A stretch of DNA of 64,000 nt from an uncultured Syntrophaceae bacterium (GCA_964597995.1 CAZRAC010000002.1:51-64050); one strand, 5' to 3'. Shown: positions 38,213 through 48,083, counted from the first letter of the stretch. The notes: a model not told the origin generated them from the sequence alone. Numbers and translations: made by a program.

Positions 38213-38809
38213 TCAAGATTTCCCGGCCGCTTTTTCTCTGTAACGGGCCATGATCTCCGACCGGGTGAGGATGGGGACTACAGGACGGACGTGCCGCTCG
38301 ATCAACTCCCGGCCGCCTTCTTCCCGGTCGATGAGGACGACGGCGAGCTCTACGGTCAGCCCTGCCTCCCGGGCGCTTTCGACCGCCGCGATGGTCGAGG
38401 CCCCGGTAGTCACCACGTCGTCGATGACGGCGACTTTATCGCCAGGCCTCACGTTTCCTTCTATCTTGCTCCGGGTCCCGTGGGCCTTGGCGTCCTTCCG
38501 GACGATGAATGACCGGATAGGGCGACCTTTCTCGAAGGAAATCAGGGCGAGGGCGTTGGCTATCGGGTCGGCGCCGAGGGTCAACCCCCCTGCCGCCTTC
38601 ACGTCCGTGTCCTTCAATATATCGAAGACGAGGTTGCCGATGAGGTACATCCCTTCCGGGTCGAGTGTCGTGGGTTTGCAATCGAAGTAGTAAGGGCTCT
38701 TCCTCCCCGAGGACAGCGTGAAGGGGTTATCCTCGTTGTACCGGAAAGACCGCTCGATGATGAGGTCGGCGAGCCTGTCCTTCATTTTTTCAAGGTCTTT
38801 GTTCGTCAT
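38213..38809 (-). CDS. pyrE: Orotate phosphoribosyltransferase
   Basis: 198 aa with the PRPP-binding loop KVAVIDDVVTTGAS and a type I PRTase fold. ATGA overlap with the metH stop. Confidence 0.88.
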   Translation of the reverse strand: MTNKDLEKMKDRLADLIIERSFRYNEDNPFTLSSGRKSPYYFDCKPTTLDPEGMYLIGNLVFDILKDTDVKAAGGLTLGADPIANALALISFEKGRPIRSFIVRKDAKAHGTRSKIEGNVRPGDKVAVIDDVVTTGASTIAAVESAREAGLTVELAVVLIDREEGGRELIERHVRPVVPILTRSEIMARYREKAAGKS

Positions 38810-41211
38810 GTCTTACCGAATATCTCCTCGAGTTTTCTGACCGCCTCGACGCCGTCTTTGGCGTATTCGGCGCCCAGGGATCGGGCGTAGGCCTTCGTCA
38901 CGACCGCGCCGCCGAGCAGGAATCGGCAGTCGGAACACTCCTTGGCGGCCAGCTCCATCACTTCCTTCATGCGTACCATGGTCGTCGTCATGAGGGCGGA
39001 CAACCCGACGACCGCTCCTCTGTGGGCCTTCGCTGCCTCGATGATTTTCCCTGCGGGCACGTCTTTCCCCAGGTCGATGACCCTGTAGCCGTGGTTTTTC
39101 ACCATCAGGGCGACGATGTTCTTCCCGATGTCGTGGATGTCCCCCTCGACCGTCGCGAGGATGACGGTCTTTCTGTCGTCGGCTGCAAGGTCTTCTTTGA
39201 GGTGGGGTTCGAGGTAATCCATGCCCTGCTTCATCGCCTCAGCGCTCGCGATGAGCTGGGGCAGGAAATACTCCCGCCTGTCGAACCTTCCCCCTACCTC
39301 GGTGATCGCCGGTATCATCACGTCCTCAACGAGGCCGAGGGGCGACGCCCCTGCGGCCAGGGCGGCGGCGAGCAACCTTCCTATGTCCTCCCGGTTGCCC
39401 TCCAGGATGGCCTGGTATACTTTTTCCTCCGGTGTCGTTGTTTCGGGGGTCTCTCGTTTCCCGGAGTTTGCGGCCTGTTCACTGAAACGGGCGATGAAAG
39501 CTGCCGCGTCCCCGTCCTTCTGGGTGAGGAGGTCGGAGGCGGCCTTGATGTTCATGAGCTCCGCCTGGCCGGGGTTGGCGATGGCGAGGGTCAGTCCCTT
39601 CCCGGCAGCCATGGCGAGGAAGGCGGCGTTTATCCACATTCTCCCCGGCATCCCGAAGGAGACGTTCGAGAGGCCGAGGACCGTTCTTGTGCCGAACCTG
39701 CGGGAGCACCACTCGACGGTTTCCAGCGTTTCCAGCGCCGCCCGGGGGTCCGCCGCGACGGTCATGACAAGCCCGTCGACGACCAGGTCCTCCTTCGTGA
39801 ACCCCCGCGCCCGTGCCCTCCGAAAGACATCCCGGATGACCTCCTTGCGTCTCGCCGCCGTCCGGGGGACCTCCCCCTTTGCGACGGGTAGGAGGATGAA
39901 CATGGCGCCGTATCTGGCCGCCGCCGCAAGCAACCTGTCGATTTTCTCTTCTTCGCCGGAGATTGAATTGAGCAAGGCCCGGCCCGGGTATCTCCTCAGA
40001 GCTGCTTCTATCGTCTCGACCTTCGGCGAGTCGATCACAAGGGGCAGGGCGGTGGCGACCGCGAGCACGTCGACGGCGCCAGTCATGGCCTTTACTTCGT
40101 CGATGCCGGGGACGCCGACATTGACGTCGAGGAGGTCTGCGCCTTCCCTCTCCTGGTCGCGGGCCATCTGGCGGACCAGGGTGAACCTTCCTTCCGTGAA
40201 TTCCTCCCGGAGGGCCTCCCTCAGGGCCTTTTTCCCCGTGGGGTTTATCCGCTCGCCGATGACCTTCAGGGCGCCTCCCCGGTCGAGAAAGACCGTCTTC
40301 CTCGGCGAGGTGAGGGCTGCGATCGACCTTTTCGCCGGCAGGATGGGTTTCTTGTTCTTCAAGTTCCTCTTCAGGGAACGGATGTGGTCGGGCGTCGTCC
40401 CGCAGCAGCCGCCCACTAGGGCGGCGCCGGCGGAGGCAAGCTCCTTTCCGAAGGCTCCGAACTCGGACGCGTCCATCGGGAAGACCGTCTCCCCTTCCTT
40501 GACGACCGGTATCCCGGCGTTCGGCTTCGCCGCGAGGGGGACGGTCGCGTGGGGCTTCATGGCGGAGATGAACCGCATCATGTCCTCGGGGCCGGTGGAG
40601 CAGTTGCAGCCCACGGCGTCGGCGCCGAGGCTCTGGAGGGTTACGAGGGCCGTCACCGGGTCCGTCCCGTTCAATGTCCGCCCGTCTTTCTCGAAGGTCA
40701 TCGTGACCACCGTGAAGAGGCCGGTGATCTCCCGCGCCGCGATCAAGGCGGCCCGCGCCTCCTGGATGTCCAACATGGTCTCGATGACCAGGAGGTCCAC
40801 GCCCCCTGCGATGAGCCCTTCTATCTGCTCCTTGAAGATGTCAACTGCTTCCTCGAAGTCGAGCGGACCGAAGGGCGAAACGAACCGACCCGTCGGGCCG
40901 ACGTCGCCGGCTACGAGGGCCTTCCCCTCCGCCGCTTCTTTTGCCAGTCGCGCGAGCTTCCGGTTTATCGCCTTCACGTCGGAGAGGCCGTATTCGGCGA
41001 GCTTCAGCCTGTTTGCCCCGAAGGTGGCCGTGTAGATGATGTCGGCCCCCGCCCGCCGATAGCCGGAGTGAACGGCCCGGATCGCTTCGGGATGGTCGAT
41101 ACACCAGGCCTCGGGGCAGACCCCCGACGGCATACCCATTCTGTGGAGCTCCGTCCCGGTGGCGCCGTCGAGGAGCAGGACCTTTTTCTTGAGGAGGCTC
41201 GGTATCTTCAT
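38806..41211 (-). CDS. metH: Methionine synthase core (Hcy-binding, pterin-binding and B12-binding modules, no AdoMet activation module)
   Basis: 801 aa with the Hcy S-methyltransferase N-terminus (LLDGATGTEL ... GGCCGTTP), a pterin-binding barrel, and the B12-binding DxHxxG motif (GDIHDIGKNIV). It ends right after the B12 Rossmann domain. Confidence 0.88.
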   Translation of the reverse strand: MKIPSLLKKKVLLLDGATGTELHRMGMPSGVCPEAWCIDHPEAIRAVHSGYRRAGADIIYTATFGANRLKLAEYGLSDVKAINRKLARLAKEAAEGKALVAGDVGPTGRFVSPFGPLDFEEAVDIFKEQIEGLIAGGVDLLVIETMLDIQEARAALIAAREITGLFTVVTMTFEKDGRTLNGTDPVTALVTLQSLGADAVGCNCSTGPEDMMRFISAMKPHATVPLAAKPNAGIPVVKEGETVFPMDASEFGAFGKELASAGAALVGGCCGTTPDHIRSLKRNLKNKKPILPAKRSIAALTSPRKTVFLDRGGALKVIGERINPTGKKALREALREEFTEGRFTLVRQMARDQEREGADLLDVNVGVPGIDEVKAMTGAVDVLAVATALPLVIDSPKVETIEAALRRYPGRALLNSISGEEEKIDRLLAAAARYGAMFILLPVAKGEVPRTAARRKEVIRDVFRRARARGFTKEDLVVDGLVMTVAADPRAALETLETVEWCSRRFGTRTVLGLSNVSFGMPGRMWINAAFLAMAAGKGLTLAIANPGQAELMNIKAASDLLTQKDGDAAAFIARFSEQAANSGKRETPETTTPEEKVYQAILEGNREDIGRLLAAALAAGASPLGLVEDVMIPAITEVGGRFDRREYFLPQLIASAEAMKQGMDYLEPHLKEDLAADDRKTVILATVEGDIHDIGKNIVALMVKNHGYRVIDLGKDVPAGKIIEAAKAHRGAVVGLSALMTTTMVRMKEVMELAAKECSDCRFLLGGAVVTKAYARSLGAEYAKDGVEAVRKLEEIFGKT

Positions 41212-41563
41212 CTTCCGGTGCGCAATCGTTGCAAAATCGAAAAACGGCGATTTACAGTAAACTTTGAAGGCGCCGATACTACCATCAACCCGATATGGGT
41301 GTCCAGTTTTTAGGGAGAGTTATAGAATCGCTTCTTCGATTAGAAGCCCATCCGGGTCCGCCACCAGCGTGAACAGGCGACCTTTGAGGTGAACTCGCGC
41401 AGAATCATAGCGCAGCCTGTTTCTGCGCGAGGCGATGAGGACTAAGGCGAGCGATTCATCTCTCTCGACCTTGCATTTGTTCGCTTATGGCTGCATGCAA
41501 GTTGTCAAGCGTACAATGCACAGTGTCCTCAACCACTTACCACTCTTGGTATCATAGAAAGAG

Positions 41564-44500
41564 TTACGATTTCCAATACGAGCCGCGACGATGCACGTGT
41601 TTATGGCTAGACCACAAGTTATGAAGACTCTCCCTCAACGCAAGGGTGTCCTGATGTTTTAGGTCGCGTTCTCCCCAAAGAAGCCACACTAAGGTTTGGT
41701 GGGTATGATTTAAATAACACTTCATCAAATCGGCGCGTAAGTACAGTAAGTGGGAGCGGAACGTGTCTTCATCGGCCTTGAACTTTCGATATATTGTGGC
41801 GACACGTCCGCCTTGATCGTATAAGTCCCATTCGCCTTGTCTATTAACTAAACTTAGTTGCTCACAAATTGCTGGGGCAGGAACCGTAATGCCGCTCACC
41901 TGATTGAGTGGACTGTGGTAGCCTTCCCAAGCAAAGCTGTAAACAGGCACTTCAACAGGAATCCCCGTACTGCTATGCCTCGAAAAAGCTTTCCGTATAT
42001 CGCGCTTTACTCTACCATCTTGTTCGCGGAGGTGTGATCCGAAACGGGGAGACCAAGGAATTTCGCCTGCGTATGTGTAGTAGTCTTCCGTTGGCTCCGG
42101 GATAGCCATATTGCCTGGGTACTCGACCGTCTTAAAAGCTGCCAATAGCTTTTTGACATGACCGCGTTCCACCAGCAAGCCCCGGAGAAAAGTAAATACA
42201 CACCTTGGGTCATCCTTTGAAGACTGCTCAATGTAACCGTCTAGAAGCACCCACGGGCCATCCTGACCATCCACTTCTTTAAGATGTAGCAGATGATTGT
42301 AATTTGGAATGGGGCCATCTGTGATCCATGCCCGAGGTTCTGCAGGAGTCTTGGTGAATAAATCGGGTAACGGGGGTTGCCAAGTCTTCGCAGGTTCAGG
42401 GAAGCTGGGATCAATGTCGGCGTCAGATGAGCGTTCGCCAGCTCGCCAATCCGGTAAAGTGCCCTCGTCGAACCTAATTCCATACATTTCAAAGAAAGCT
42501 ATCCAAGAATATTTCTTCCCGTATCTGTCTGTCTTTGGGACTCCACGGCTTTCAGCTCGCCATGATGAGCCGCGGATTCTCTTGTCTATCTCGGCAAACT
42601 GACTTGACCTGTATCCCAATTGCGCGATCCTGTATTCGATTTGATGCCTAACTTTTCGATATATTGAGTTATCAAAGTCGTAGTTTCTTCTATGCGGAAT
42701 CAGCCTGCCAATGGTATAGTTTCCGAAGTCCATAAGGATTGACCCCTTGGCTTCGGCTATATCAGAGTCGCTGATTTTATCCGGTTCCAAAAATGGTGAG
42801 GGAATTTGACTGAACGTAGGTTGTAAGTGCGTTCTCTGCTCATCTGGTATGCATCCGGGAGCCAACCGGGTTGCCAGATTGATTACACCCCGGGCATAGT
42901 CCCTCATCAAGACATGGCAGGTAGCGTGCGGAGCTTTAGGAACGAACATCTCCTCTACCAATTTGCGTGCAAAGTCAGGGAGTCCCTTACGTAGCTCTTC
43001 ACCCCGAGGATCGGCCCAAAGCGACATCACAACGCCGTAACACGCCGCAAGCATACGCTCAGGTACATAAGGGTCATTTATTTCCAGTGAGTTCAGTGTC
43101 AGATCAAATAGAGCCTTTGGATTGCTGCATCCAAACCAATACAACGCACGTGTGGCATGATCACGTAGCAGACGGACTGTGCTTGTGAGGGTCCACATCA
43201 TCCACCGTGCTTTCAACTGATCCCGGGGGCTTAGAGCCTGCACCGACCGCCAGCGTTGCTCTAACCACTTTATATCTTCAAGTATATCTTCTTGCCTGCT
43301 GCGAACCCATTCCGTCCATCGGCGATCGCGTTCCGCCATCGACATTGAGCGAAGAACTTCGTTCAAGAAATCCACATTCAGGGGATGGGCTTGAGCCGCA
43401 CGGGTGGTCCAGAGCCTATAGAATAGGTCACGGTGTCCTTGCGGCTGTTGAGCAGTAAGGGTGGCTAATTGTGATACTGTCTCACTATCCAAGAACTCCT
43501 TGTCCAACCATGCCGAGTTATAAAGAGCCTTTGTCCGGAGTGGTTCGTCCAACAGGGTCCAGAGTTGCTCTCTGTATCTGCGGCGAGGCGTCAGCCCCAC
43601 AAGAGCCGTAAAGATATCAGCTGCGAGTGGATGCTGCTCTCCTACATCACCCGCAATCATTTTTGTTGCTTCCGCTTGTAACCATCTCATAAACTCATCA
43701 GACCCTGCATACTTCTCAATCAGTGCATCGGCTACGAGATGACCGGCTAAGGCATCATAAACGACAGCTATCTGATTACCACCCAAACGGGGGTCGGATA
43801 CTCGGATGAGCACACGTTCCTGTTCCAGGGCTCGGATAATGCTCTGATCCCACGGACGAACATGATCGCCTAACCGTTCGCGTAATTCATCAAGATCAAG
43901 GCTGCGCGTTTTCGCTTCCCATAAACACAAGCCGATCTTGCTAAGCACGGTGCGAATGTCAGACTCAAAGTAACGCCAGGAACGAGGCGAGAGCTGTGCA
44001 ATGCGTTCTGCTACCTGTTCCAAGTATCGCTCAAACAATGAGGTCAGTGAGCCAGGCATCGCTTCAACACCTACGAGCCGCTCACGTTTAGGATTTGTCA
44101 CCTCGCAAAACATGCGCAACGTGAGTGGATGTTGGAGAAGTTCCAATGGTAGCGCTGCATCCGATGGGTCGATCTGGTAATATTTGAAATAACGGCGCAC
44201 TGCATCATAGATGTCGTGTCCAAAGCCTGGTATCTCCAATCGTTCAACCCCATCGGGCAGCGCCTCTTTAACAAAGTCTGAACGAAGAGTGCACACCACC
44301 ACGACATATGGATACCGGGCTAGCATCTCATTCAGTGATGCAAGTTGCTGCTTCCAGTCGCGAGGATCCTCTGCTTCGTTCAAGCCGTCAAGGACGATGG
44401 GTAAACGTCTGCCCGCACGCTGACCTGCAGCGTCTACGGCAGCGACTAACGCTGCGAAACTCTCTACAGGGCGGCCGTTGATAACAAATCTGCGAGCAAG

Positions 44501-45598
44501 ATCATCAAGGGTTCCTCGGGCTGCCAGGTCACGTCCGTGGATCAGGATACCGGCAGGACGGTTCTCTACCGGGGCAGTGAGTTGGGCTGATAGGTGAGTC
44601 TTACCATATCCTGCATCAGCAACAACCGCGATCAAGCGATCCTCCAGCGCCTTGCGAAAATCATCGAGGAGCCGATTAGCAGCGAAAATATCTGCCACCA
44701 CGTTAGTGGCCCGCAAAACGACAGGACGTCGCTCTCTCCTCAATCGGCGAAGCAAGACATTCCACCCAAGATCAGGACCGCCTCGGGCAGTAAGTGCTTG
44801 ATGCACGATTTCATAATCTCCACCTGCCAAAGCGGTATGCGTCTGACCTAAGGTGTCTGCAACGAGAGTTGCGGTCACGACTAACCTACTGACCTCTTCC
44901 ACGATGTCCTTAGGCAAACTTGCCAGCTCAGTGCTGACAGCAGCAACACCATCCCGAAGCCGGTTTGTCACCGCTGTCAGATCAGACCAAGCTTCCTCCT
45001 CACCCAATGTGCGACGAAGTGAACGCTCGGCATCCACAATTTGGTGTGCTTCAGGCAGCCATCTTCCTGAAATACGCGCAACCGATTCATTATGCTTGTC
45101 GCTCAGCAAGTCCGGCGTAAGAACGAGTTCGCCGAAATAGGTACCGCGAAGGATTTCTGCGGGCCCACTGAGATGTGTTTCAACATCAGCGGCCGTCCAA
45201 AGATGGAGCCTCATGTGTGTTTGCAAACCATAGAACCATTCCTGATCACCTTCCGTCAGAGTGTGTCTTGTCCAGAGAATCCAGTCGGTCAATTCGGGAA
45301 GAATTTCTTTTGTCTTCCTGATAGCCTCCTCAATTTGTCTTCTCCGTGTATTTCCGATGGCCCGTCCACTCTGAAGGTCATACCACCTGCATTGCCAGCC
45401 ATACCAGCGCCCAGGTTCTCCCAGAGGGCACCTTGCGTGTAGTTTTAAGTGGAACTCAACCCCTGGTTGATTAGCAAGGGCGCGAAAATCACCATATTGC
45501 CCATAGTGCAGGCGAATGATTGCACGGCACAGTTGCTCGAAGTTGCGGGTTTCATCCCCAGGCAATGTCGCAAATATTTTCCAGTTCAATGCAGGCAC
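41564..45598 (-). CDS. NACHT/STAND-family NTPase with a distinct N-terminal domain and an ~880-aa C-terminal region of unknown fold
   Basis: 1344 aa, GTG start preceded by GGGAGGGAGG. Walker A is ADAGYGKT (aa 327-334, nt 44597-44620) and Walker B is IVLDGLNE (aa 401-408, nt 44375-44398). VVVVCTLRSD and LEIPGFG...YF follow in NACHT order. Confidence 0.75.
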   Translation of the reverse strand: MPALNWKIFATLPGDETRNFEQLCRAIIRLHYGQYGDFRALANQPGVEFHLKLHARCPLGEPGRWYGWQCRWYDLQSGRAIGNTRRRQIEEAIRKTKEILPELTDWILWTRHTLTEGDQEWFYGLQTHMRLHLWTAADVETHLSGPAEILRGTYFGELVLTPDLLSDKHNESVARISGRWLPEAHQIVDAERSLRRTLGEEEAWSDLTAVTNRLRDGVAAVSTELASLPKDIVEEVSRLVVTATLVADTLGQTHTALAGGDYEIVHQALTARGGPDLGWNVLLRRLRRERRPVVLRATNVVADIFAANRLLDDFRKALEDRLIAVVADAGYGKTHLSAQLTAPVENRPAGILIHGRDLAARGTLDDLARRFVINGRPVESFAALVAAVDAAGQRAGRRLPIVLDGLNEAEDPRDWKQQLASLNEMLARYPYVVVVCTLRSDFVKEALPDGVERLEIPGFGHDIYDAVRRYFKYYQIDPSDAALPLELLQHPLTLRMFCEVTNPKRERLVGVEAMPGSLTSLFERYLEQVAERIAQLSPRSWRYFESDIRTVLSKIGLCLWEAKTRSLDLDELRERLGDHVRPWDQSIIRALEQERVLIRVSDPRLGGNQIAVVYDALAGHLVADALIEKYAGSDEFMRWLQAEATKMIAGDVGEQHPLAADIFTALVGLTPRRRYREQLWTLLDEPLRTKALYNSAWLDKEFLDSETVSQLATLTAQQPQGHRDLFYRLWTTRAAQAHPLNVDFLNEVLRSMSMAERDRRWTEWVRSRQEDILEDIKWLEQRWRSVQALSPRDQLKARWMMWTLTSTVRLLRDHATRALYWFGCSNPKALFDLTLNSLEINDPYVPERMLAACYGVVMSLWADPRGEELRKGLPDFARKLVEEMFVPKAPHATCHVLMRDYARGVINLATRLAPGCIPDEQRTHLQPTFSQIPSPFLEPDKISDSDIAEAKGSILMDFGNYTIGRLIPHRRNYDFDNSIYRKVRHQIEYRIAQLGYRSSQFAEIDKRIRGSSWRAESRGVPKTDRYGKKYSWIAFFEMYGIRFDEGTLPDWRAGERSSDADIDPSFPEPAKTWQPPLPDLFTKTPAEPRAWITDGPIPNYNHLLHLKEVDGQDGPWVLLDGYIEQSSKDDPRCVFTFLRGLLVERGHVKKLLAAFKTVEYPGNMAIPEPTEDYYTYAGEIPWSPRFGSHLREQDGRVKRDIRKAFSRHSSTGIPVEVPVYSFAWEGYHSPLNQVSGITVPAPAICEQLSLVNRQGEWDLYDQGGRVATIYRKFKADEDTFRSHLLYLRADLMKCYLNHTHQTLVWLLWGERDLKHQDTLALRESLHNLWSSHKHVHRRGSYWKS

Positions 45599-45616
45599 AA
45601 CGTCCTCCCTCCCATC

Positions 45617-46030
45617 TCAAGAAGACCTGCCACGCCCGTACCCTGTATTAGGATAGTTATGGGCCGAATACACTTCTACCTTAGCACCTTTATCTAAGAG
45701 AACCTTGAGGAATGCAGAAACATCCGCCTCCTCTGTAGTAATAACTACTTTGTTGCCATCGACATCAACCTGAACGTCATAAAGTAGTTGCTCCAATTCT
45801 GCCGGACCAAGAATGTACAGATTTGCTGCTCTCAAGAGTTCCAACATTCCGTCTGTGAACCGATCTTGGGGAACTGTATTACTCTGGTTCTTGTCCGCAT
45901 CATCCTTTACCTGACCAGCAAGCTGGCTAAGCAAGTCTTTGGCTTTTTCTGCATCGCTGACTTCTTTGAAGTGCCCGATCATAACAAGATTCATGGAGTG
46001 TTCAGAGCCATAGCCCTTCCAAATCTTCAT
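45617..46030 (-). CDS. Hypothetical 137-aa protein (no family recognised), translationally coupled between the radical SAM and NACHT genes
   Basis: The ORF track starts at 46045. The ATG at 46030 is preceded by GGGAGG at 7 nt and overlaps the upstream stop (ATGA). No TM segment or signal peptide is seen. The tail is Gly/Arg/Tyr-rich (YSAHNYPNTGYGRGRSS). Confidence 0.6.
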   Translation of the reverse strand: MKIWKGYGSEHSMNLVMIGHFKEVSDAEKAKDLLSQLAGQVKDDADKNQSNTVPQDRFTDGMLELLRAANLYILGPAELEQLLYDVQVDVDGNKVVITTEEADVSAFLKVLLDKGAKVEVYSAHNYPNTGYGRGRSS

Positions 46031-46965
46031 TTTGCAACCTCCCACATTGATTCAAGCATTCTTAGAGCTTCCATTACCCCTCCCGACGCAATGGGGATAC
46101 CATGTTTATCATACGATGATCTTTTGATTGTTCCTGATGCATCGATATGAGCATATGCACGAAGCTCAGTTTCTCTGGGCAAGGGGTCCGCAATGGGCAT
46201 ACTGTCCCGACCTACTTCGCTTACAGCTATACGAATGGGGCCAGCATAAGAGTGCACCCACCTGCGCAGTGCTTGCATTGTGCTATTGTCAATACCGCTT
46301 CCCTTGTTTGTAGGGAGCTGCGGAAGTAGGAGAAACTCAGATGCACCGACTTCTGCTGCCAGCGCGATAGCTGCGTCTATTTCGGGAAGAGTGAGGCAGT
46401 TTACCAGATAATTGATGCCAAAGGGAGCACACTCACGAATCACTTCAAGCTTTTGGAGTAGTGCTGAAAAAGACCGGTTACGTATCTTCTCATATGTGGC
46501 GCCGATGCCGTCCATGCTGACGCGGATGAAATGTACATTTCCCTTTAAGGTAGCGGCCAATCGGCCATCGATGTGGTGTCCATGTGTTGTGAATGTCGCA
46601 GCCATGCCGGTGTTTTGGGTAACATGGTTGCATATATGAAGCAGGTTTTTGTACAAAGTTGGTTCACCGCCTCCGAAACCGACACCAATACACCCATTTG
46701 CATCAAGCTCGTCTAACCAATCAATTAACCGGCCCATACTAAGCATGGCCGGATTTTTGGGCGCAAAACAATGAGGACAATCAAGATCACATGCATTCGC
46801 TAACGCAATCGAGACATGGCGTGGCGCAGTGGACCACAACTCCTGAGCCACTTTAGCGTCGTCGATAAGAAGGTTCAGTCCTGTCTCGCGACTAAAAAGG
46901 AGGATGCCATCGGGGCCTGTTCGCACTTTGAACCGATGGAGCATTTTAACTATACCAGGCCGCAT
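46027..46965 (-). CDS. Radical SAM enzyme (no SPASM/twitch auxiliary Cys cluster evident)
   Basis: 312 aa with CxxxCxxC at C59/C63/C66 (ANACDLDCPHCF, nt 46768-46791) and the SAM-binding GGGEP (aa 98-102). The C-terminal half has only two isolated Cys. Confidence 0.8.
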   Translation of the reverse strand: MRPGIVKMLHRFKVRTGPDGILLFSRETGLNLLIDDAKVAQELWSTAPRHVSIALANACDLDCPHCFAPKNPAMLSMGRLIDWLDELDANGCIGVGFGGGEPTLYKNLLHICNHVTQNTGMAATFTTHGHHIDGRLAATLKGNVHFIRVSMDGIGATYEKIRNRSFSALLQKLEVIRECAPFGINYLVNCLTLPEIDAAIALAAEVGASEFLLLPQLPTNKGSGIDNSTMQALRRWVHSYAGPIRIAVSEVGRDSMPIADPLPRETELRAYAHIDASGTIKRSSYDKHGIPIASGGVMEALRMLESMWEVAK

Positions 46966-46972
46966 ATTTGTA

Positions 46973-47001
46973 ATTTTATCAAGAGTAAATCACATCGTTA
47001 A
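46973..47001 (-). promoter_or_regulatory. Putative sigma70-type promoter of the cassette (TTAACG-N17-TAAAAT)
   Basis: Read on the minus strand, the -35 TTAACG is at 47001-46996 and the -10 TAAAAT at 46978-46973, ending 7 nt before the ATG at 46965. There is no SD before that ATG, so the mRNA may be leaderless or short-leader. Confidence 0.3.
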
Positions 47002-47018
47002 TTCTAATTCTCCCTCGG

Positions 47019-47291
47019 TCAGGTCAGTGCCCGGTCATACCACATAAGTAGCTTCGGGTCTTCCTGGAGGACGTTCTCGGGAATCTTGCGGGCCACGGTG
47101 ATGATGGTGGCGTAGTCGCGCTCCTGCCAGGCCTTCTTAAATCCGGCGCGGACGGCCTCGTACTTGTCGGAGACGTACTTGAAGAGCAGGGTGAGGATGT
47201 AGTCCTTGTACTGAGAGGCGTCCATGCCGCCCCGCAGTTCGTCACAGGATTGCCAGAGGGAGGAATAGAGCTGCGATTTTTTCAGGGCCAT
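47019..47291 (-). pseudogene. hsdM: Truncated type I R-M methyltransferase (HsdM-like) remnant
   Basis: 90-aa ORF. The first about 44 aa (MALKKSQLYSSLWQSCDELRGGMDASQYKDYILTLLFKYVSDKY) match the HsdM N-terminal domain. No AdoMet-binding or NPPY/F catalytic region follows, and the ORF is far shorter than any functional HsdM. Confidence 0.65.
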
Positions 47292-47329
47292 CGGTCAGTA
47301 CCTCATCGCATCCATTGTTCTTCTACCTT

Positions 47330-47453: not shown

Positions 47454-48083
47454 CTATGCCTTTATGGGCTCGATGCCGGCAAGGGCCGTAACGGATTTTT
47501 CGGGCACGAGCAGGCAGGCCTCCGTCAGTCGGACGCCGAGCTGGTCGAGGCCGAGGGTCCTGTATATCCACTCCTGGTTTTGCAGCGGAAAGTCGCCGTA
47601 GCCCGCGGAAAAACGCCTTTTCGTGAGTCTGCGGTTTTCCCGGCGGAGTTTCCCTTCGAGGTACGCCATCATCCAGTCCAGGGCAAGGTCCACCACTTCG
47701 CTCGCCGCCGCGTCCAGGACCACGGCGCGGGTCATTCTGCCCCGCTCTGTATCTTTTTTGATTTCCTCCATGATGGCGGCCCCGGCGGTTGCGCCCATCA
47801 GCATGACTTCGTCCGAATGCCTGAGCAGCCCGGCGAGGCTTCTGCTCGCCAGCGTCTCGCCGTTCGCGAGTTTGATTTCCGTGTCCTTTTCCCTGTCGAT
47901 GGCCAACCGGACGGCAACACCGGCAAGGCGGATGAGGGAGAGGGCGTCGTCGATCGCACGGTCTGTTTCCTCCGCCTCGTGGGGCTTGAGGCGGGTCGTC
48001 CCTTTCCGGTATCCCAGCCGTCTGTAGATCTTTTCTTTCGGTGCCGCGAGGGTTATGGTGTCAAAAAAAAATGAACGTGCCAT
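47454..48083 (-). CDS. Stand-alone methionine synthase reactivation (AdoMet-binding, Met_synt_B12) domain protein
   Basis: 209 aa. RFSAGYGDFPLQNQEWIYRTLGLDQLGVRLTEACLLVPEKSVTALAGI matches the MetH activation-domain signature (RxxxGYxxxP ... P.KS). Confidence 0.78.
   Translation of the reverse strand: MARSFFFDTITLAAPKEKIYRRLGYRKGTTRLKPHEAEETDRAIDDALSLIRLAGVAVRLAIDREKDTEIKLANGETLASRSLAGLLRHSDEVMLMGATAGAAIMEEIKKDTERGRMTRAVVLDAAASEVVDLALDWMMAYLEGKLRRENRRLTKRRFSAGYGDFPLQNQEWIYRTLGLDQLGVRLTEACLLVPEKSVTALAGIEPIKA

Follow-up and report, generated by a model that had tools for sequence, protein, structure and literature searches.

The 64,000-nucleotide stretch of DNA analysed here (the window; GCA_964597995.1, CAZRAC010000002.1:51-64050, from an uncultured Syntrophaceae bacterium) contains three consecutive genes for a radical SAM (S-adenosylmethionine) protein (Avap1), a DUF6375 protein (Avap2) and a large STAND nucleoside triphosphatase (NTPase). 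The operon is of the Avap1-Avap2-KpAvs2 type, and the architecture of the large protein is not new; its gene is an ordinary member of a characterised three-gene anti-phage system. We estimate at about 85% the probability that this protein is a KpAvs2-type Avs2 (AVAST type 2) antiviral STAND NTPase, encoded by the third gene of an avap1-avap2-avs2 operon and acting by the mechanism proposed below. An earlier reading of the locus, made from its sequence alone (the sequence-only reading), had described an NTPase of the STAND/NACHT-like kind that has a radical SAM partner gene, a helical linker and, as its head, an Mrr-like PD-(D/E)xK domain, and to this extent it has been borne out.

The avs2 gene was confirmed as a single open reading frame (ORF) of 1344 codons plus a stop codon, and all NTPase-core and N-terminal motifs quoted for it earlier were found at the residues given. 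The NTPase core contains the Walker A motif ADAGYGKT (residues 327-334, with GYGKT at 330-334), the Walker B motif IVLDGLNE (401-408), VVVVCTLRSD (432-441) and LEIPGFGHDIYDAVRRYF (454-471), and the N-terminal part contains NFEQLCRAIIRLHYG (19-33), GVEF (46-49) and YGWQCRWY (66-73). Both Walker motifs are intact; K333, D404 and E408 are invariant in all 110 full-length homologues (at least 47% identity) that served also as the conservation sample for the N-terminal head. The features of the locus are collected in Table 1.

Table 1. Position of the avs2 operon and of the domains and motifs of Avs2 in the window, counted from its first nucleotide.
Feature	Position	Strand	Evidence
Avs2 gene (KpAvs2 type), 1344 residues, GTG start	41564..45598	-	PADLOC Avs2 PDLC02164; profile match to EcAvs2 (PDB 9o4e)
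N-terminal Mrr-like PD-(D/E)xK nuclease effector, residues 1-135 (E21, E48, Q69, R71)	45194..45598	-	AlphaFold2 model, Foldseek, 8dgf profile match, NCBIfam Avs4
Codon AGG for Arg71, at the site corresponding to catalytic K71 in KpAvs2	45386..45388	-	Codon reading; K/R polymorphism in homologues
Helical extension between nuclease and NTPase, residues 136-320; probable Avap2 docking site, by analogy	44639..45193	-	Aligns with EcAvs2 165 onward from residue 160
STAND (NACHT-like) NTPase, residues ~321-600	43799..44638	-	Motifs, invariant residues, NCBIfam Avs2 (residues 323-914), weak Pfam NACHT match
Walker A	44597..44620	-	
Walker B	44375..44398	-	
Alpha-helical TPR-like Avs2 domain, residues ~601-965	42704..43798	-	Profile alignment to EcAvs2; domain description in PMC13601566
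C-terminal beta-rich sensor, residues 966-1344, confidently modelled from about residue 1066	41564..42703	-	Profile match to 9o4e, AlphaFold2 model, fold match to 8dgc
Avap2 (DUF6375)	45617..46045 (ORF); 45617..46030 (137 residues, probable ATG start)	-	PF19902, E = 4.9e-52
Avap1 (radical SAM protein, 312 residues)	46027..46965	-	PF04055, E = 2.3e-13; CxxxCxxC motif CDLDCPHC intact in the translation

A homologue search with the Avs2 protein returned 1175 homologues at E ≤ 1e-5. The PADLOC model Avs2 PDLC02164 matches residues 2-966 with profile positions 2-999 of 1504 (E = 1.4e-123), and five more PADLOC Avs2 models match with E values between 1e-29 and 1e-77. With matches of this strength and this many homologues, the features described are no product of chance. 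The NCBIfam Avs2 model NF041813 covers residues 323-914 only, with 295 bits, and its equivalog cut-off of 1000 is not reached. In the PDB, a search with the single protein found EcAvs2 (9o4e) at E = 1.5e-28, and a profile of 33 sequences found it at E = 2e-59. The profile match spans residues 160-1317 and falls into two stretches. The first of these aligns residues 160-965 with EcAvs2 165-989 (E = 4.8e-46), and the second aligns residues 983-1317 with EcAvs2 1101-1447 (E = 4.2e-9). The cryo-electron microscopy structure of EcAvs2 in complex with phage terminase has been solved (Evans et al. 2026, PMC13601566), and thus all but the first ~160 residues of our protein are homologous to a protein with a published terminase-bound structure.

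Ordinary domain models had little to say about this protein, and the sequence-only reading was accurate in calling much of it unassigned. Pfam gave nothing at E ≤ 0.01 for the full protein and nothing above threshold for four separate segments. The best segment match was NACHT (PF05729; 20.5 bits, E = 4.6e-4, residues ~397-471), which falls short of the gathering threshold of 26.7; some homologues carry a precomputed PF05729 match, and "NACHT-like STAND" is the safe label for the NTPase. The practical value for annotation is that a Pfam-blank protein of 1344 residues beside a radical SAM gene is fully explained by a published defence system.

EcAvs2 and the protein described here share a homologous helical extension, NTPase, TPR domain and C-terminal sensor. 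They differ at the N-terminus, where EcAvs2 carries an unlike, uncharacterised effector, and in genetic setting, as EcAvs2 acts as a single gene. The C-terminal ~880 residues are the Avs2 TPR domain followed by the beta-rich terminase sensor. Indeed, a profile of 20 sequences of the C-terminus alone aligns with 9o4e residues 1103-1447 (E = 9.4e-9). The AlphaFold2 model of this region has a mean predicted local distance difference test score (pLDDT) of 76, with a confident beta-rich part from about residue 1066, and its only significant fold matches in the PDB are to 8dgc, the complex of SeAvs3 with terminase (chain B, E = 3.7e-8; chain A, E = 4.9e-8; both with probability 1.00). SeAvs3 has the same beta-rich C-terminal sensor fold, which contacts the terminase ATPase (PMC13601566), but possesses another TPR domain and a Cap4-type nuclease effector and is a much larger protein.

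The sequence-only reading had seen no obvious repeats after the NACHT module and had suggested a new sensor domain. A sensor unrelated to those of known Avs or bNACHT proteins would fit the lack of Pfam matches and the failure of residues 966-1344, searched as a single sequence, to find any significant match in the PDB, EcAvs2 being recovered by profiles only. The two-stretch profile alignment to EcAvs2, the separate alignment of the C-terminus and the predicted fold resembling the terminase-bound SeAvs3 sensor led us to reject a novel sensor domain, whose probability we regard as vanishingly small. Instead, residues ~601-965 correspond to the TPR-like domain of Avs2, and the whole region to the TPR domain and sensor of an already characterised Avs2 clade, an outcome of the kind that the sequence-only reading had itself named as refuting its proposal.

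The EcAvs2 residues in contact with terminase or with a bridging ATP have been described (PMC13601566), and four of the eight that we mapped have conserved equivalents. The pocket residues D981, E1362 and E1444 of EcAvs2 correspond to the near-invariant D957, E1225 and E1310 here, and R1132 corresponds to R1014 (Arg in 74 of the 110 homologues). The bridging-ATP contacts T1128, R1130 and E1364 of EcAvs2, as well as W1266, have no conserved counterpart.

The N-terminal head is closest to that of EcAvs4. A profile of residues 1-135 matches the N-terminus of EcAvs4 (8dgf; E = 1.9e-4), and the NCBIfam Avs4 model matches the first 118 residues (E = 8.5e-6). The motifs NFE, NQxG[VI]E (NQSGIE in EcAvs4, NQPGVE here) and GWQxK/R-[FW]YD (GWQSKFYD in EcAvs4, GWQCRWYD here) are common to both. 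The AlphaFold2 model of residues 1-135 (pLDDT 90.3, predicted template modelling score 0.85) shows an alpha-beta-beta-beta-alpha-beta core, in which E21 lies on the first helix, E48 starts the second strand and Q69 and R71 lie on the third strand. With this model, Foldseek retrieved EcAvs4 as the best match in the PDB (probability 1.00, query-normalised TM-score 0.66), followed by MspJI, AspBHI, NucS/EndoMS, Cap4, Hjc and McrC, all of which are PD-(D/E)xK nucleases. The model and the structural matches thus confirm the restriction endonuclease-like fold suggested earlier for the N-terminus. Note that the Pfam model Mrr_cat (PF04471) matched none of 23 N-domains of homologues even at E ≤ 10; the relationship to Mrr is visible only at the level of profile and fold, via EcAvs4. 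EcAvs4 provides the closest solved structure for the head, but identity to it is about 20%, it carries Lys where Arg71 stands here (Q63-S-K65 in the alignment), and its sensor recognises the portal protein rather than terminase.

Among characterised systems, the one nearest to our locus comes from Klebsiella pneumoniae S_15PV, in which Béchon et al. (2024, PMC11564622) described the Avap1-Avap2-KpAvs2 operon. KpAvs2 carries an endonuclease of the Mrr family at its N-terminus, then a STAND NTPase and a C-terminus of the Avs2 type, and its defence is abolished by the exchanges K71A in the nuclease and K337A in Walker A; the system acts through non-specific DNA degradation and abortive infection (PMC11564622). 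The two operons agree in gene order and orientation (radical SAM, DUF6375, Avs2), in domain order (from an Mrr-like nuclease through a helical bundle and a STAND NTPase to the Avs2 C-terminus) and in the presence of a catalytic basic residue at position 71. They differ in that this residue is Arg here and Lys in KpAvs2, in that the Walker A Lys is residue 333 here and 337 there, and in the host, which is here an uncultured bacterium of high GC (guanine-plus-cytosine) content. Orthologues from Enterobacterales and Pseudomonas (L029, L032 and L016) possess K71 and a Walker A Lys at 337, i.e. the numbering of KpAvs2, so that Arg71 here corresponds to the K71 shown by mutation to be essential; identity of our protein to the Enterobacterales orthologues L029 and L032 is ~42-44%. 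Two loci of the genome survey described below belong to genomes that Fig. 1B of PMC11564622 shows among the homologues of the operon, namely Nitrospirae JdFR-85 (70% identical to our protein) and Syntrophobacterales Delta_02.

The sequence-only reading had called the head degenerate and possibly inactive or repurposed, on account of Glu48 and of QxR in place of QxK, and had suggested that the radical SAM partner delivers the enzymatic output. Glu at position 48 is no departure from the layout, since it is the norm in this nuclease family (NQSGIE in EcAvs4; 109 of the 110 homologues). Of the two residues that this reading had singled out for comparison, E48 is present in all homologues but one, whereas position 71 varies: it is occupied by Arg in 65, Lys in 44 and Glu in a single homologue, the N-terminus of which appears to be replaced. 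Q69 is likewise conserved in 109 of the 110 sequences, and E21 is Glu in all 107 that have a residue in this column (three have a gap). At the 80 loci of the genome survey described below, Lys is found in 54 and Arg in 26, and the triad E21-E48-Q69 is invariant. At our locus the Lys71 of the KpAvs2-type operon is replaced by Arg; given the Arg found in 65 homologues and at 26 loci, Lys71 is not a defining feature of the natural operon family.

According to parsimony on a neighbour-joining tree built from residues 140 onward, position 71 has changed between Lys and Arg at least 17 times, and each change corresponds to one transition of the AAG/AGG type. This polymorphism is under strong constraint. 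In Arg and Lys lineages alike, no part of the protein is better conserved than the head, which has a mean pairwise identity of 0.66 in the former and 0.64 in the latter (NTPase, 0.60-0.62), and both forms keep the same partner genes, Avap1 and Avap2. Recurrent switching, constraint and retained partners indicate a functional site in which Lys and Arg are interchangeable rather than an inactivated domain. Arg71 probably stands in for the catalytic Lys as a natural equivalent and is not a sign of decay, activity with Arg being deduced from these patterns of conservation. That E21, E48 and Q69 hardly vary, in the part of the protein that is conserved best, makes it probable that the head is active.

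The opposite view, in which QxR has turned the head into a dead or repurposed scaffold for oligomerisation or DNA binding only, with Avap1 providing the toxicity, can appeal to the fact that Arg71 replaces the very Lys at which an exchange for Ala deprives KpAvs2 of its defence (PMC11564622) and to the constant co-occurrence of a radical SAM enzyme with weak similarity to viperins. But a dead active site would not keep E21, E48 and Q69 invariant, Lys and Arg alternate at least 17 times next to identical partner genes, with copies of both kinds in one genome (L006/L007), and the Arg lineages show no weaker conservation of the head. A decaying nuclease head was rejected on the invariant E-E-Q residues, the number of K/R changes and the equal conservation in Arg lineages. 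Furthermore, in the KpAvs2 system it is the nuclease that is essential, whereas Avap1 is needed against some phages only, is dispensable against SECphi18 and provides no defence alone, and viperin-type nucleotides were not found (PMC11564622); this speaks against an output delegated to the radical SAM protein. We consider the dead-scaffold explanation very doubtful. The broader proposition that in Arg71 lineages, which account for about one third to one half of the operon family and include this locus, the head lacks canonical Lys-dependent DNA cleavage, and relies either on an undescribed Arg catalysis or on a non-catalytic DNA or oligomerisation module combined with Avap1 toxicity, also appears unlikely.

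Arg71 could also be a tuned variant, i.e. a functional nuclease with altered kinetics or altered metal or pH dependence (e.g., slower and less prone to autoimmunity, or nicking instead of cutting), with selection by host or phage flipping the residue. The recurrent switch by a single transition (AAG to AGG) with the rest of the head held constant and the presence of both alleles in one genome are in line with this. However, near-neutrality of the exchange would explain the switching equally well, and no other head column co-varies with K/R between the Arg and Lys lineages, so that second-site changes accompanying a tuned enzyme were not found. We regard tuning as a possible but tentative explanation, and prefer simple interchangeability of Lys and Arg in an active nuclease. 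In any case, roughly 30-60% of the natural family members have Arg instead of the catalytic Lys on which KpAvs2 depends, and the replacement has occurred repeatedly and with constraint retained. This touches on the strictness of the Lys requirement in PD-(D/E)xK nucleases and on whether effector strength is tuned in Avs systems.

The chromosome OZ244148.1, a Rhodothermales metagenome-assembled genome (MAG), carries two complete avap1-avap2-avs2 operons (L006 and L007), one encoding Lys71 and one Arg71. They form a natural pair for comparing the two residues. A further homologue (P0106), with 1336 residues and 64% identity across 74% of our protein, has a precomputed match to reverse transcriptase (PF00078) and aligns abnormally at position 71; this may reflect an N-terminal replacement, the insertion of a group II intron or a gene-call artefact.

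The partner genes avap1 and avap2 adjoin avs2 upstream on the same strand, with a gap of 18 nucleotides between avap2 and avs2. As an open reading frame, Avap2 starts with GTG and overlaps avap1 by 19 nucleotides. Gene calls on contigs with an identical Avs2 protein place the start at an ATG five codons downstream, giving a protein of 137 residues and a 4-nucleotide overlap of the ATGA type with the avap1 stop codon, which suggests translational coupling. For Avap1, PADLOC gave weak pVip-like matches. A survey of species-representative genomes yielded 80 loci, one of them in an archaeal MAG and the others spread over many bacterial phyla. The order avap1-avap2-avs2 was found in 78 of these, the other two being cut by contig ends; avap2 lies upstream of avs2 in 79 loci and avap1 in 78. 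The same order is present on two metagenome contigs (L081 and L082) encoding the identical Avs2 protein.

The archaeal representative, a Methanothrix sp. MAG (L058), carries the same operon, and its presence there implies inter-domain transfer of the defence system.

The following mechanism is extrapolated from the characterised relatives, with regard to the trigger, the oligomerisation and the nuclease activity with Arg. A pocket formed by the helical extension, the TPR domain and the C-terminal sensor would bind a phage protein; in EcAvs2 the helical extension contributes to terminase binding (PMC13601566). The ATPase domain of the large terminase is the most likely (default) trigger, and unrelated small phage proteins also trigger KpAvs2 (PMC11564622). 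Binding would permit ATP-dependent tetramerisation via the NTPase domains and bring four N-terminal nuclease heads together, resulting in non-specific DNA degradation and in death or arrest of the infected cell, i.e. abortive infection. In KpAvs2, Avap2 attaches to the bundle of helices that separates the nuclease from the NTPase (PMC11564622); by analogy, it probably sits on the helical extension here as a constitutive accessory subunit. Avap1 would broaden or modulate defence through some radical SAM reaction.

Several points weigh against this picture. The NF041813 score of 295 bits, far below 1000, marks the protein, as judged by this model, as a divergent Avs2 subfamily to which the equivalog name is not automatically transferable, and the 1344-residue protein is known here from its sequence and predicted structure. 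As T1128, R1130, E1364 and W1266 of EcAvs2 are not conserved, the range of triggers may differ from that of EcAvs2. Searching the literature for a replacement of Lys by Arg in enzymes of the PD-(D/E)xK type yielded nothing directly relevant; we are not aware of a characterised nuclease of this type that has Arg at the site, or of a demonstration of catalysis with Arg. The loss of KpAvs2 defence in the K71A mutant (PMC11564622) counts here as well, given that Arg replaces this Lys at our locus. Finally, any role given to Avap1 and Avap2 is tentative even in KpAvs2, the system to which our analogy refers, and a search of the recent literature on both found no mechanistic follow-up.

The operon is located in an islet of low GC content of ~5.8 kb (window ~41500..47300; GC ~0.50, about 0.47-0.55, vs 0.60-0.67 in the flanks), which consists of the three genes and, at its edge, a methyltransferase remnant. 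No credible direct repeats flank the islet (none of at least 14 nucleotides). It is inserted between metH (38806..41211, 801 residues, without the activation domain) and, on the minus strand, an ORF of 209 residues (47454..48083) that weakly matches the C-terminal activation region of MetH. The remnant at the islet edge is a chimeric ORF of 90 residues (47019..47291, minus strand), the first ~63 residues of which match the N-terminus of the type I methyltransferase HsdM and the last ~48 the very end, on the C-terminal side, of a methyltransferase of the type II/PglX kind. Judging from these matches, it looks like the collapsed remnant of a restriction-modification or BREX methyltransferase.

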